Of a DNA stretch of 64,000 bases, positions 39,238 through 48,663 are shown piece by piece. Within the stretch, counting starts at the first letter, position 1. Each line of letters starts with the position of its first letter. The notes beneath the pieces were generated by a model, which worked only from the letters and a program-made list of their open reading frames with translations, did no database searches and was not told the DNA's origin. Source of the DNA: Escherichia coli 042 (GTDB lineage: Bacteria > Pseudomonadota > Gammaproteobacteria > Enterobacterales > Enterobacteriaceae); assembly GCF_000027125.1 (NCBI RefSeq), contig NC_017626.1. One strand, given 5' to 3'. The translations under genes were made by a program, and so were the position numbers.

Positions 39238-40014
39238 TCACCAGTCAAAACTTTTCACCAGCGTCAGCTCGCCAGCATTACGCATCGGTACAATAAATGT
39301 TTCCTGTTTCTCATTGACCGATCCTTCATCGGTGATCAGCGTCAGTTGGGCGGTCGTCAATTCCGTTTCGCTGCGTCCGCCATAGTAGTTGATATACACC
39401 TGATAACGTCCGTGAATCGGCGCTGGCATGGCGAAAATCTCGGGGCCGTACCCCGTCGTGACATCCATATCCAGTGCACCACTGTTTTTCAGCACGGTGT
39501 TACCGTACCAGGCGTGTTCGCCATCAGGTGTAACAACGTGAAGGTCGAGGTCGGTATTGTCCGTATCCCAGGAGAGAACCAGCCGTAAACGCGCGCGGAT
39601 CACTCCAGCGCCCGGCGTTGAGTAAAACTGCATTTTTTGTCGGCTTTGCCCATCTGGGCTGATGACCTGCACGCTGTTGCTGCCTTCAGTGAAAATATAA
39701 GGGCGTGCAAATGAACCATCGGATTCAATTCTCTGCGGCATACTGGCACCGTTGACCACCAGCCGGCCCTGCTGAACTTTACCCGCCGCAGCACAATTCT
39801 TTATTTTGCCGCGGATCTGCGCTGAGATATTTTGATCATCTGCCATGTTGACGGACGACGCCGGGTAATTGATCGATTGTGAAAAACTGGCATCTTCGCC
39901 CTCTGCCGGATGCCAGCCAGAGAGCGGTGCATCAATCTCGACTTCCTGCACACCTTCGCCATGGGCAACAGGCGAAAGCGCCACCAGTAACAACGGAAGA
40001 AAAATCTTTCGCAT
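39238..40014 (-). CDS. yfaP: Exported DUF2135-type protein YfaP
   Basis: 258 aa, signal peptide (MRKIFLPLLLVALSPVAHG); last gene of yfaA operon. Confidence 0.75.
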   Translation of the reverse strand: MRKIFLPLLLVALSPVAHGEGVQEVEIDAPLSGWHPAEGEDASFSQSINYPASSVNMADDQNISAQIRGKIKNCAAAGKVQQGRLVVNGASMPQRIESDGSFARPYIFTEGSNSVQVISPDGQSRQKMQFYSTPGAGVIRARLRLVLSWDTDNTDLDLHVVTPDGEHAWYGNTVLKNSGALDMDVTTGYGPEIFAMPAPIHGRYQVYINYYGGRSETELTTAQLTLITDEGSVNEKQETFIVPMRNAGELTLVKSFDW

Positions 40015-40018
40015 AGCA

Positions 40019-41668
40019 TTAGTCCATTAATAATTGTCGAGTCAGCGTTTCGATATAGTTCTCATCAAGCCCGGTGGGATAACCATCAAAGGCCAGGTGC
40101 AGATACTCATGGGTTAAATCCAGCCGATCCTGAAGCGTAAAGAAGTTACGAATAAACAGCCGTTTCTGCTGCCGATCGGTATAGGGGAAACCTGAGACTA
40201 AACGACAGACCGCAAACACGTCTGGTTCGTTGTACCCCGTCTCGCCTTGTAACATACGCCGCCACTGCGACATTTTTTTCGCCAGCCAGGCTTTCGCTTT
40301 GGGTAATAACTGGCAGGTTGAGCGCGGCGCTCCCCAGCGGCTAAGGCTATTGTCGGGATAAGCAAACGCGAGTATCTGATCGTAACGCTCTCCCTGCCCC
40401 GCCTGGGCCGTGGCTTGCCGCCAGGAAAGCGTCCCTTCGGTAGCGCGACTGCCATGATAATGAACCGGATCGCCCGCATAGATAAGATCCTGCGTCCAGG
40501 CGGTCATCGTTCGCGCCCCCGTGGTAGCTGGCGAAGCAGAAACACGTTGCGTGGCGCTACTGTCGGGGATGGTCAGGCAATCGCCTTCCCGATTGGCGTT
40601 TTGCTGTAAAAAAGTGCGAATCGCCACGGTCATGGCTTTCGCTGCCTCAGGGGGCGTACTTTTCGCCTCGCGATCCAGAACTCTGGCAACGTACTCTTCA
40701 CGATCGAGATGCGACTGCAATTTCAGTTTGCCCTTTTCGCTCAGTAAGGTCGTCTCACCGTGGCTGACAAACGTAATGTGGTTACCATTGGCAAACGTCA
40801 CACGATAGCGCCCATTAAGTACGCCGGGTTTTACTGCCGTCGAACTCTTCTCCGCCGTGATTTTCTTCAGCGGATAGCGGGCAAACAGCTCCACCAGGAC
40901 ACATTGCCCACTGGCAACTTGCGTCGGCACTGGCAAAACCCGATTAAGCACCGTCGCATAACGGGTCAGTACCGTTTTGCTGGTGCCGCTGCCAGTCACC
41001 CACAGCGGTGTACCATCGGTTAACCAGCCAGCAAAACCACCCTGACGGATTTCCTGCTTATCATCGGCAAACCAGCTCCAGGTTTTCACCCGTACCCGGC
41101 TACCGAGCATGGATGCAACTCCGATTTTCGTCTCGTCCAGCACCACATCCAGTAAGACTTCCTGAGCTTTGTTTTGCGCGGGTAACGTCGCTAATGAATC
41201 AAGCAGTGATTTAACCGTTACCGAGGTTTCTGGCTTCAGCGTAGTAAGAGACGCTAACCACGCAGGTGCCTGACGCTGTTGCCAGTATTGCCCCCATACA
41301 TCTGCGCCAATATGCAACCGCTGCGGCGCAAAATAGAGCCCACAGGAACGTACCAGCGCGGTATCGCGCGTTATGCTCTCCCCAGCCTGACAACAATAAA
41401 CCTCTTCCGGGGAGTTTCCGCGACACTGGTAGGGCTGCTCCGGTTGATGGGTATCCTCCAGCCAGGCGTAAACATACAGTTTCCACAAACTCCCTAACGG
41501 CGTGGTGAGTGTGTCAGGTAATGCCGAGACTTTGGTCACGCCTGATGACGACAGCTGATACAGTTGATCGTGCTGCGCGCCCCGCAGCGCCAGTTGTAAC
41601 GGCGTCTCCTCCGCAAGCGTTGGCAGAGTAACCAACGCCAATAGCCAGACGATTCTGCGCCAGTTCAC
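40019..41668 (-). CDS. yfaQ: Exported DUF2300-type protein YfaQ
   Basis: 549 aa, signal peptide (MNWRRIVWLLALVTLPTLA); start abuts yfaS stop. Confidence 0.75.
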   Translation of the reverse strand: MNWRRIVWLLALVTLPTLAEETPLQLALRGAQHDQLYQLSSSGVTKVSALPDTLTTPLGSLWKLYVYAWLEDTHQPEQPYQCRGNSPEEVYCCQAGESITRDTALVRSCGLYFAPQRLHIGADVWGQYWQQRQAPAWLASLTTLKPETSVTVKSLLDSLATLPAQNKAQEVLLDVVLDETKIGVASMLGSRVRVKTWSWFADDKQEIRQGGFAGWLTDGTPLWVTGSGTSKTVLTRYATVLNRVLPVPTQVASGQCVLVELFARYPLKKITAEKSSTAVKPGVLNGRYRVTFANGNHITFVSHGETTLLSEKGKLKLQSHLDREEYVARVLDREAKSTPPEAAKAMTVAIRTFLQQNANREGDCLTIPDSSATQRVSASPATTGARTMTAWTQDLIYAGDPVHYHGSRATEGTLSWRQATAQAGQGERYDQILAFAYPDNSLSRWGAPRSTCQLLPKAKAWLAKKMSQWRRMLQGETGYNEPDVFAVCRLVSGFPYTDRQQKRLFIRNFFTLQDRLDLTHEYLHLAFDGYPTGLDENYIETLTRQLLMD

Positions 41669-46288: not shown

Positions 46289-46857
46289 GTCATAAGTTGT
46301 TGCAGACTGACTGCGCGCATTCCGTTGTCAGTTTTCGTGGCGCTTCCGGTGTGGTAGATGACGTAACGCCCCATCCAGACCATTAAGTGCTGGGCATCGC
46401 CCTGATCGAAAAAAATCATATCGCCAGGCAGCGCCTGGTTTATGTCCTGGCCAATAAACTGGCTGTTGTACTGAATCAAATTAATCGCGGTCACGTAGGG
46501 GCCGGTTTTCCCGTTCCCCTGATTCCAGTTTTGCGCCAGTTGACGCTGTTCAGGTGTTAGCGTCATTTCAGGCGGCAAATACTGACTTGCTATACCGTTA
46601 CTTTTTAGCCATTTGCTGTCGTGAATTTTCAGCGCCTCGTTCGCCGAAAATCGCACCAGGCCCGCACAATCCTGCTGATACCAGCGTGGGCTTGGCCCCT
46701 GGCGGAGTTGTTCCTGTGCAATGCGTACAAACCACGCGCGAAACAGCCCCGACTGTTCGACATTCAGCATTTCGCTATGGGCAACAACACAACACAGCCA
46801 GCAAATCAGCGCCAGCAGCCCGTGCCTCATAGCGGCTGCCAGGTTATGGGTAGCCAC
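46207..46857 (-). CDS. yfaT: Exported DUF1175-type protein YfaT
   Basis: 216 aa, signal peptide ([15 protein letters not shown]); overlaps yfaA 3' end and yfaS 5' end. Confidence 0.75.
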
Positions 46858-48557
46858 TGCCAGGCGGCACCGGGTTCCATCTGGGCCAGCTTCATGACAT
46901 AACGCGGTTGTTGAGATAAAGCGTCCAGCTTCGGCATTAATAAAGTTTGTGCGGCGTTATAAAAAACCGGTTCGAGATTCTTCGGCAGACTGGTCAACGT
47001 TTCGTTACGCAGCAGTTTCGCCACGCCTTGTGGATTGATATAGAGCGGAACGATGCCATCAGTGGGTATTACATCCACCATTGCCGGGCGGGTTTTATTC
47101 AGTGTTTGCAGGGCGTTATTAACCAGCGTGTCATCGAGGGAGAAAAGCAGCGTTTTGTTTTGCATCGCCAGCGACACGCGGAAAAAATAATCCGACATTA
47201 ATTGATCTGGTTGCGCCGCCTGCGCTTTCGGATACTGGCCGTATCGGGAACTCACTTCGCGACGCCAGATTTGCGCTTCGCCCTGCTGAGTCTGGCTTAC
47301 CGGCAAAACACCTTCTGGCGCTTTGCTTTCGTGCGCACCAATATTTTGCGTAAACAGTTTCCCAGGCAGTTGTGCCTGTTCGGCTGAGCCATCAAATTGA
47401 CCAACAAATAGCGGGGTTTGTAATTTTGAGTCTTCATACCAGCACAGCCCGGCGGCACCATCTAACGCCCCGTTCAGCTTGTCGTTTTCCTGGCTGATGT
47501 GCGAAAGCATCTCTTCGGCAATACCATGCGAATACGGCACCGCCACACAGAAGCTGGCCCCAGCAGGCATACTGTTCCATACCGGCGTAAAATCGAAACT
47601 GGCATCTACGCTTGCGGATTCATCATTTAACGCCACAAAACTGTGCCAGCCGTCGTTACCCATTTCGAAGCGTACGCCAGCAAAAGAAGGCATTAACCGC
47701 TGGTAGCCAAAACCCAGCAACCTGGCGCTGGCCACGATGCGCTGGCGTACTGGCGTTTTTTCGGCAGTACGCTCTTCCAGGCCAAAGCTGGCTTGCCAGC
47801 GTTTTTTGCCGCTCAACAAATCACTTGCGATCGCCGTGGCTTCGGTATCCTGCTGATCATCTTTAAACAGCATATCCGTGCTGGAAAACACCAGCATCTT
47901 GTCCTGATATGTCGTGAACATCAGGGCGTTATTGCCGTTATAGCGCAACTGATAAACCGGGATGGTTTCACTATTTAGCTTAATACTACTGATTTCCGTT
48001 TTGCTTAACTGGCTGTCGCTGGTAGCGGCAAACAACAATGGCTCCAGCAGTTTGCTTAAACCACTGCGCTGGATCAGCACCATGTAATGTGAAAGATGGC
48101 CTTGTTTATCGTGCCATAGCGCCGCCTGTGCGGGCTGATCTAAGAGTGACGAAAAGAGCTTATCTTTCAGCGTGAGATCGTGTTCATAGACAATGCGGCG
48201 AATGCTGCCTTCAATGCCCAGACGATCGGCATGATTCTGATAATAGAAAACGAAATCTTCACTCAGAACATCGTGGAGAAACGGAATGGTAAGGAGGTCT
48301 TTGGGAAGCTGGCTCAGAGAGTCGCTGTCGAGAAAGAGGTCCGGCTCATTGAGATCGATTTGCAGATTGTTGTGCACCACCAGCGGCGACAACGTTTTTT
48401 CTGGCCCACTGCCAGCATATTGCAACGCCCAGACGCCAGCGGAAAGCAGTACTATTGCGCCCAAACATACAAGACCATAGAACCGCCAGCCTTTCGCCTT
48501 TTTTTCACCACTCATTGCCACATTCCTTGTGTAAAGCCAGCCATTTTTTACGAGCAC
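46827..48557 (-). CDS. yfaA: Membrane-anchored DUF2138-type protein YfaA
   Basis: 576 aa, N-terminal hydrophobic anchor ([21 protein letters not shown]); first gene of operon, 106 bp downstream of gyrA stop. Confidence 0.75.
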
Positions 48558-48663
48558 AGCAAAACTTTACCGCGCCCTAATACGACAAAAGCCCAGACTT
48601 TGCAGCCTGGACTTTTCAATTCAAACAAGGGAGATAGCTCCCTTTTGGCATGAAGAAGTAAAA

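Follow-up and report, generated by a model that had tools for sequence, protein, structure and literature searches.

A 64,000-nucleotide stretch of DNA from Escherichia coli 042 (contig NC_017626.1; hereafter the window, to which all coordinates refer) contains, at 39238-48557, five consecutive minus-strand open reading frames (ORFs), yfaA, yfaT, yfaS, yfaQ and yfaP, with gyrA upstream and the convergent gene atoB beyond yfaP (Table 1). The original prediction saw here a compact five-gene cluster of the alpha-2-macroglobulin (A2M) type with envelope-targeted products, and the domains and export signals found agree with it. Profile searches detected MG2 and A2M domains together with DUF2138, DUF1175, DUF2300 and DUF2135, at Pfam E-values that exclude chance, and all five products begin with a hydrophobic export signal, or in YfaA with a transmembrane helix, export signals being judged throughout by hydropathy and inspection only. 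The cluster almost certainly belongs to the Mag-type family; by sequence and gene order, yfaATSQP is orthologous to the already known Mag system of Pseudomonas aeruginosa, classed as Type II among bacterial A2Ms, and represents its five-gene Enterobacterales form. The earlier view that such systems are known bioinformatically only and have no established function is out of date, given that P. aeruginosa magABCDEF has been studied at the bench (PMC3735191, PMC5764988 and PMC12663445; PDB 7BK8).

The gene junctions are tight. As had been predicted, the yfaS stop codon (TAA) directly abuts the GTG of yfaQ, and 4 bp separate yfaQ from yfaP. An overlap of yfaA and yfaT exists too, but its predicted length of 31 bp came from taking the longest ORFs, and with the start used by RefSeq and K-12 it is a 4-bp ATGA. 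The predicted length of yfaS has the same origin: the gene is indeed one intact frame, but of 1534 codons from the probable ATG rather than 1539. In other lineages the A2M gene starts at an ATG that overlaps the MagC stop codon (ATGA), whereas the same site in Escherichia reads ATAG, so that a signal peptide results only from the ATG at 46273, which lies 67 nt within yfaT and is preceded by the Shine-Dalgarno sequence GGAAGGA. As a result of this relocation, the common RefSeq model of YfaS, which starts at a GTG at 46183 and is 1504 residues long, has no signal peptide. From ATG 46273, the N-terminus looks on inspection like a plausible Sec signal ending in ANA before DD, yet Cys25 lies within the lipobox-like sequence I-A-A-C.

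The junctions and the transcription signals together predict that the five genes are co-transcribed. Hairpins on the gyrA side (48587-48644) separate gyrA from the yfaA leader, and promoter-like and terminator-like sites within the operon are not commoner than in shuffled sequence; this lack of internal excess, with terminators on both flanks, fits a single transcription unit. NCBIfam gave a name for YfaA only, plus a sub-threshold SpoIID match, the PADLOC defence models matched none of the five proteins, and Rfam found no RNA family in window 38000-52000.

Table 1. Features of the yfaATSQP locus in window coordinates, in the direction of yfa transcription
Feature	Position	Strand	Basis or remark
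gyrA	48664-51291	minus	upstream flank
Pair of terminator-like hairpins past the gyrA stop	48627-48644 and 48587-48616	minus	sequence, terminator scan, RNA fold z = -6.2
yfaA leader	48516-48586	minus	between the terminator-like hairpins and the yfaA ATG
yfaA	46827-48515	minus	ATG at 48515, annotated-type start, 562 aa; longest ORF 46827-48557
YfaA transmembrane helix	48414-48485		residues 11-34 in the predicted structure
yfaT	46207-46830	minus	probable start 46830, 207 aa; longest ORF 46207-46857
YfaT Cys motif QQDCAGLV	46654-46677		NlpC/P60 motif
yfaS	41669-46273	minus	probable ATG 46273, 1534 aa; longest ORF 41669-46288 = 1539 aa
Bait region and start of next macroglobulin domain	43646-43735	minus	conservation scan; MagD bait coordinates from PMC5764988
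Counterpart of the MagD bait ANRSERG	43703-43723		homologous motifs ANRSERG and TNRSERR
Degenerate thioester site P-W-G-G-V-I-N-T	43055-43078	minus	YfaS 1066-1073; family profile alignment to ECAM, homologue motif census
yfaS codon 1368	42170-42172	minus	TGG (Trp) here, TGA (stop) in K-12 MG1655 (W1368*)
yfaQ	40019-41668	minus	GTG start, 549 aa
YfaQ SpoIID segment	40547-40735		conserved DYVARVxxRE
YfaQ C-terminal motif HEYLH...DE	40058-40111		HExxH type
yfaP	39238-40014	minus	258 aa
Bidirectional terminator hairpin	39177-39198		between convergent yfaP and atoB
atoB	37980-39164	plus	convergent flank

YfaA matched DUF2138 over its full length (Pfam E = 3.6e-287). Its single N-terminal transmembrane helix appears both as a hydropathy peak at residues 10-34 and in the AlphaFold2 model, in which it accompanies an alpha/beta domain with weak Mog1/PsbP-like structural neighbours only. 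Sequence and model together identify YfaA as the MagB homologue, predicted to be a bitopic inner-membrane protein with a large periplasmic alpha/beta domain. YfaT aligned over residues 21-206 with the crystal structure of P. aeruginosa MagC (PDB 7BK8; E = 9.1e-103), and its Pfam matches were to DUF1175, now named "MagC" (4.2e-58), and weakly to NlpC_P60 (1.6e-3). It shares with NlpC/P60 peptidases the fold (via 7BK8) and the D-C-A-G and Q-H motifs, the Cys lying in QQDCAGLV and the His in QHLMVWMG. It differs from these peptidases in that DUF1175/MagC, for all its NlpC/P60 fold, is described as binding peptidoglycan and catalytically inactive (PMC10318531). YfaT is a protein of the DUF1175/MagC family with a papain-like NlpC/P60 fold and a predicted signal peptide, in which catalysis is putative.

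YfaQ has two DUF2300 repeats (2e-44 and 3.9e-43) flanking a SpoIID segment, which gave a partial Pfam match (1.4e-5) and scored 18 bits with NCBIfam SpoIID_LytB, against a cut-off of 83. The resemblance to SpoIID/LytB lies in the motifs EEYVxxVxxxE...EAxKAxAxAxRT and the C-terminal G..Y..IL..Y, which align with Bacillus anthracis SpoIID (4RWR); in this alignment E334 falls on the SpoIID Glu motif, and the residue is kept in distant homologues. Unlike SpoIID, however, YfaQ matches model positions 2-65 of 97 only (PDB E = 0.26), and its segment is framed by DUF2300 repeats and has downstream of it an HExxH motif, which SpoIID lacks. This C-terminal motif, HEYLH...(D/N)E, is invariant in six diverse homologues; searches of Pfam and the PDB returned no peptidase match for the YfaQ C-terminus. 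Conservation of the YfaQ motifs was counted in homologues reached through relatives of YfaA and not via the motifs, and a count of HExxH in 80 genome loci was discarded because those loci had been picked with that same peptide pattern, which made the count circular. YfaQ further has a predicted signal peptide (MNWRRIVWLLALVTLPTLA, ending before EE) and eight cysteines conserved among the four close orthologues aligned. Taken together, the motifs suggest that YfaQ/MagE is a periplasmic enzyme, with a putative zincin fold, rather than the chaperone proposed in 2018. Our literature search found no mention of HEYLH or SpoIID-like motifs in YfaQ/MagE.

YfaP carries a C-terminal DUF2135/YfaP_C domain (3.1e-17) and a predicted signal peptide (MRKIFLPLLLVALSPVAHG, ending before EG). 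Its predicted structure consists of two beta-sandwich domains, with invariant Asp-rich loops, and its sequence marks it as a homologue of both MagF and MagA. Single-sequence PDB searches with YfaA, YfaQ and YfaP gave nothing usable. For YfaS, Pfam placed MG2 at residues 344-440 (1e-18), A2M_BRD at 661-806 (6.7e-17), A2M at 871-953 (1.6e-12) and bMG10 at about 1402-1517 (3e-6). A single-sequence PDB search yielded only weak matches, to macroglobulin (MG) domains of C5 and CD109, and did not reach the structures of ECAM or Sa-A2M; alignment to ECAM needed a family hidden Markov model (HMM), which aligned the MG2 and thioester regions (whole-sequence E = 4.2e-18).

The P. aeruginosa mag operon is magABCDEF (PA4492-PA4487). 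Published COG assignments map MagA-F one-to-one onto Yfa proteins, MagA and MagF both being YfaP-like (PMC3735191). The E. coli operon has the same order of families, namely DUF2138 (MagB), DUF1175 (MagC), a thioester-less A2M (MagD), a protein with two DUF2300 repeats and SpoIID (MagE), and DUF2135 (MagF). In both, no gap separates the A2M stop codon from the start of the DUF2300 gene, a transmembrane helix stands at the N-terminus of the DUF2138 protein and the bait is homologous. YfaT matches the MagC structure, and four of the proteins show 41-55% identity across Pseudomonas loci: YfaS, YfaQ and YfaP are 51-54% identical to MagD, MagE and MagF of P. aeruginosa PA7, YfaS homologues in Pseudomonas have 51-55% identity, and for YfaA the identity to DUF2138 (MagB-type) proteins is 41-51% at the genome loci outside Escherichia. 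The systems differ in the start of the A2M gene, which in E. coli has moved 67 nt into yfaT and brings a Cys in a lipobox-like context. Control by RsmA/GacA is a result for Pseudomonas only.

All five genes were co-conserved in order at every related locus at which this could be tested. A genome scan seeded with YfaQ gave 80 loci, 67 of which had enough upstream DNA, and the order DUF2138-MagC-A2M-DUF2300-YfaP on one strand was kept in 67 of these 67. Where their upstream DNA reaches far enough, Pseudomonas loci carry a further paralogue of the YfaP type (magA) upstream of the module; the five-gene form lacking magA occurs at all seven Enterobacterales genome loci, plus Serratia and Yersinia loci. 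The same five-family module lies among unrelated flanking genes in Serratia, Yersinia and P. citronellolis, and the gene order recurs in distant metagenomic operons in which YfaA identity is only 27-29%.

That YfaS has no CxEQ motif, as predicted, is confirmed, and the protein contains just two cysteines. In the family HMM alignment, YfaS PWG-G1069-V-I-N-T is paired with PYG-C1187-L-E-Q-T of E. coli ECAM; by this alignment, Gly stands in place of the thioester Cys and Asn in place of the Gln. The site reads GVIN or GVVN in Escherichia, its closest relatives, Serratia and Yersinia, and GVEQ in most Pseudomonas, the E. coli site being the more decayed. CVEQ is retained by 31 of the 120 best homologues, by 6 of the 80 genome loci and, in the same gene context, by four metagenomic operons that are only distantly related. 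A homologue with CVEQ occurs, for example, in P. citronellolis. Because some relatives retain CVEQ, the thioester looks ancestral in the Mag-type A2M clade, with stepwise loss. Members of the Mag type that bear CVEQ are at odds with the definition in print, by which Type II lacks the thioester.

Bench work on the Pseudomonas proteins provides a frame for interpreting the E. coli operon. After export, MagD is kept at the inner membrane by MagB, a single-pass protein (PMC3735191 and PMC5764988), and it forms 1:1 complexes with MagA, MagB and MagF (PMC5764988). When its bait ANRSERG was swapped for a tobacco etch virus (TEV) protease site, the protease stayed bound non-covalently after cleavage (PMC5764988). 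A 2025 screen by CRISPR interference found that the GacA-controlled mag operon protects against VgrG3 and Tae1, type VI secretion system (T6SS) effectors that target peptidoglycan (PMC12663445). Complex formation, tethering by MagB, trapping and protection from T6SS effectors are all results for Pseudomonas proteins. The present analysis covers orthology, domains, thioester loss, export signals, gene order, co-conservation and selection, and we extrapolate from Pseudomonas to the behavior of the E. coli proteins.

On this analogy, we lean towards the view that an envelope-defence trap operates in E. coli. Expression of the five genes would be from a single mRNA with translational coupling, and all the products would be exported. 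As the counterpart of MagB, YfaA would cross the inner membrane once and hold YfaS at the periplasmic face, and YfaP, with its two beta-sandwich domains the equivalent of MagF/MagA, would bind YfaS as an accessory subunit. YfaT (NlpC/P60 fold) and YfaQ (SpoIID-like plus HExxH) could link the complex to peptidoglycan, process YfaS, or both. On cutting of its bait, YfaS would change shape and hold on to the enzyme that attacked it, with no covalent bond, since neither Cys nor Gln of the thioester is left. The net effect would be to shield the periplasm and cell wall from foreign hydrolases, whether host proteases or peptidoglycan-targeting effectors of rivals. Consistent with such a trap, the YfaS bait is homologous to that of MagD, for which cleavage leads to non-covalent trapping (PMC5764988), and a link to peptidoglycan is suggested by the YfaT fold, the SpoIID-like motif of YfaQ and the protection that magD gives against VgrG3 and Tae1 (PMC12663445).

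Several points weigh against this interpretation. Our literature search found no E. coli experiment on yfaATSQP. In Pseudomonas, trapping by MagD was incomplete and was seen only where a TEV site had been engineered in, MagE turned up in the cytoplasmic fraction, and no MagC was detected in the complex (PMC3735191, PMC5764988). E. coli is without the sixth gene magA and has a single YfaP-type gene, with gyrA directly upstream of yfaA. A scan of the leader (48516-48586) found no sigma-70 consensus promoter ahead of yfaA, and two terminators precede the gene. The I-A-A-C context of Cys25 would suit a lipoprotein as well as a soluble YfaS. In K-12 and in an O145 strain yfaS has been inactivated without obvious harm.

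The bait itself provides a further objection. Classical A2M baits have been described as variable. The YfaS bait window stood at the 98.5th percentile of conservation among 30-residue windows in a 22-sequence family alignment, and its sequence KVLERPRR is kept in distant operons. The YfaS bait is also nearly identical to that of MagD, which is unexpected in a broad-spectrum trap. Conservation this strong would fit a specific trigger better than such a trap.

A specific trigger could come from within the operon. If YfaT (through its Cys and His) or YfaQ (through HExxH) cut the YfaS bait, YfaS would then serve as a scaffold or cage controlling the peptidoglycan-active modules of the operon, for instance after wall damage, and the whole would be a self-triggered complex for wall maintenance or regulation. 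The conserved bait would be expected of such a complex, and the NlpC/P60 Cys and His motifs that YfaT keeps, like the HEYLH...(D/N)E and SpoIID-like Glu motifs of YfaQ, invariant in homologues fetched independently of motifs, would supply candidate enzymes. MagD is moreover cut from 165 to 100 kDa in vivo with no protease added, a cleavage for which MagB and MagC are required and which changes when magE is deleted (PMC5764988). However, MagC/DUF1175 is the protein described as inactive (PMC10318531), the zincin fold of YfaQ is putative, with only its motif seen, and chymotrypsin, trypsin and papain each cut the MagD bait. In addition, the final third of the conserved bait window already belongs to the next MG domain, whose beginning is conserved, as it is in C5. 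We regard a self-triggered complex of this kind as rather unlikely.

A bolder combination of these elements, to which we give a slightly smaller chance, would make Yfa/Mag a self-contained, damage-triggered machine for wall defence instead of a passive trap of broad spectrum. YfaQ/MagE would be bifunctional, joining a SpoIID-like module for glycan strands to an HExxH metallopeptidase; on peptidoglycan damage, such as that done by T6SS muramidases or amidases, YfaQ or YfaT would cut the YfaS bait to give an active cage; and the ancestral thioester would have become dispensable once activation was internalised.

It seems improbable, slightly more so than the foregoing, that the system is mainly a host-directed colonisation factor that neutralises, in the periplasm, proteases or antimicrobial peptides of host origin, met in the gut or in the course of infection, instead of bacterial effectors. 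This function has been hypothesised for bacterial A2Ms in print, and binding of neutrophil elastase by MagD is on record, as is a lower virulence of magD mutants when infection is chronic (PMC3735191 and PMC5764988); the operon is also conserved across commensal and pathogenic E. coli. On the other hand, the system abounds in environmental metagenomes and in Pseudomonas from soil and plants, certain host-associated lineages of E. coli no longer have the operon, and the only clean genetic phenotype so far is against interbacterial T6SS effectors (PMC12663445).

The original prediction took yfaS to be annotated as a split pseudogene in K-12, and the gene is indeed defective there: K-12 yfaS (b4500) is flagged as a pseudogene and is colinear with the window copy, with a lone in-frame stop at codon 1368 (W1368*). 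The lesion, a single change from TGG to TGA in a colinear gene, is therefore a nonsense mutation and not a frameshift. The O145 strain RM9154-C1 has an internal stop in yfaS plus a frameshift in yfaQ, so that yfaATSQP has been repeatedly inactivated in some lineages (K-12, O145). N-terminal YfaS fragments of 959-999 residues recur on dozens of contigs. Of 5426 complete E. coli genomes, 5425 nevertheless have the locus and 5178 cover at least 80% of it, the dominant full-length E. coli YfaS protein cluster has 40,950 members, and yfaS is intact in a BL21-type strain and a uropathogenic strain. An intact yfaS is thus the usual state in E. coli and not a peculiarity of the 042 copy; the expectation that this strain would be a better background for functional work holds relative to K-12, but the strain is not unusual in this respect.

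The ratio of nonsynonymous to synonymous divergence (dN/dS) between the window and K-12 was 0.06-0.11 for all five genes, compared with 0.12 for atoB, and yfaATSQP is under purifying selection. With such ratios, with the locus and full-length YfaS so widely kept and with gene order and motifs conserved down to 27% identity, it is very improbable that the operon is a dispensable remnant drifting to loss in E. coli with no current role, despite the K-12 and O145 lesions, the many truncated YfaS fragments in protein databases and the lack of a promoter in the leader scan. Recent horizontal transfer into E. coli was considered and set aside, the GC content (0.51-0.56) being unremarkable and synonymous divergence (dS) like that of neighboring genes. 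Over window 39100-48760, identity to most complete E. coli genomes is 95-97%, the best being 98.7% to MEI003, from an environmental sample; at 95-97% identity over the locus, the window therefore comes from a somewhat divergent E. coli lineage.

The nonsense allele of the central gene in K-12 probably explains the silence of E. coli genetics on this system, and in wild-type-like strains, BL21 derivatives among them, the operon is available intact in the genetic host best suited to work on it. There is nothing out of the ordinary about the locus as such, a near-universal, annotated E. coli operon that the bacterial A2M literature has described and whose Pseudomonas orthologue has been characterised, and it is not a new kind of system. 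What it adds is a set of leads on how thioester-less macroglobulins act against peptidoglycan-targeting T6SS effectors, namely the conserved bait, the YfaQ/MagE motifs, the ancestral CVEQ and the relocated start codon.

YfaS also has relatives outside the Mag-type family. Like the Type I A2Ms (E. coli ECAM/YfhM and Salmonella Sa-A2M), it is a large periplasmic protein of multiple MG domains with a bait and a region resembling the thioester-containing domain (TED). ECAM, however, has CLEQ (C1187), is anchored as a lipoprotein and shares its operon with PBP1c, whereas YfaS has no thioester and four other partners; and yfaS adjoins yfaT and yfaQ, while K-12 yfhM adjoins pbpC at another locus. With eukaryotic A2M, C3/C4/C5 and CD109, YfaS has in common the MG architecture, the segment PDSLTRWRI and another segment that align to C5, and the principle of a bait-triggered trap. 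It differs from the eukaryotic thioester proteins in having no thioester and no detected anaphylatoxin or CUB insertions, in being periplasmic and in its conserved rather than variable bait.

The yfaA leader contains a candidate site for CsrA/RsmA, which we mention as an idea only. Its Shine-Dalgarno region, ACACAAGGAAUGUGG (window 48516-48545), resembles the CsrA/RsmA consensus, with GGA in the loop of a CACA/UGUG hairpin over the Shine-Dalgarno sequence. The magA leader of P. aeruginosa is a known RsmA target; our literature search found no paper linking yfaA to CsrA. The yfaA leader is conserved within Escherichia only, so that no covariation could be used to support the idea.

Some neighbors of Mag-type operons elsewhere may also be noted. 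On one metagenomic contig (L095, 1-9089), the operon starts about 900 bases downstream of genes of the bacteriophage exclusion (BREX) type, encoding an MmeI-type methyltransferase, PglZ and BrxL, and on another (L094, 13163-15483) genes for HNH, Tn5-transposase and HipA come after it. Such neighbors hint that Mag-type operons are placed among defence or mobile genes. In P. citronellolis (L003, 4380-4650), two direct repeats of about 120 bp with palindromic 'cgtataaccgttcgcggttatacg' units, similar in look to repetitive extragenic palindromic (REP) elements, lie upstream of the magA-like gene.

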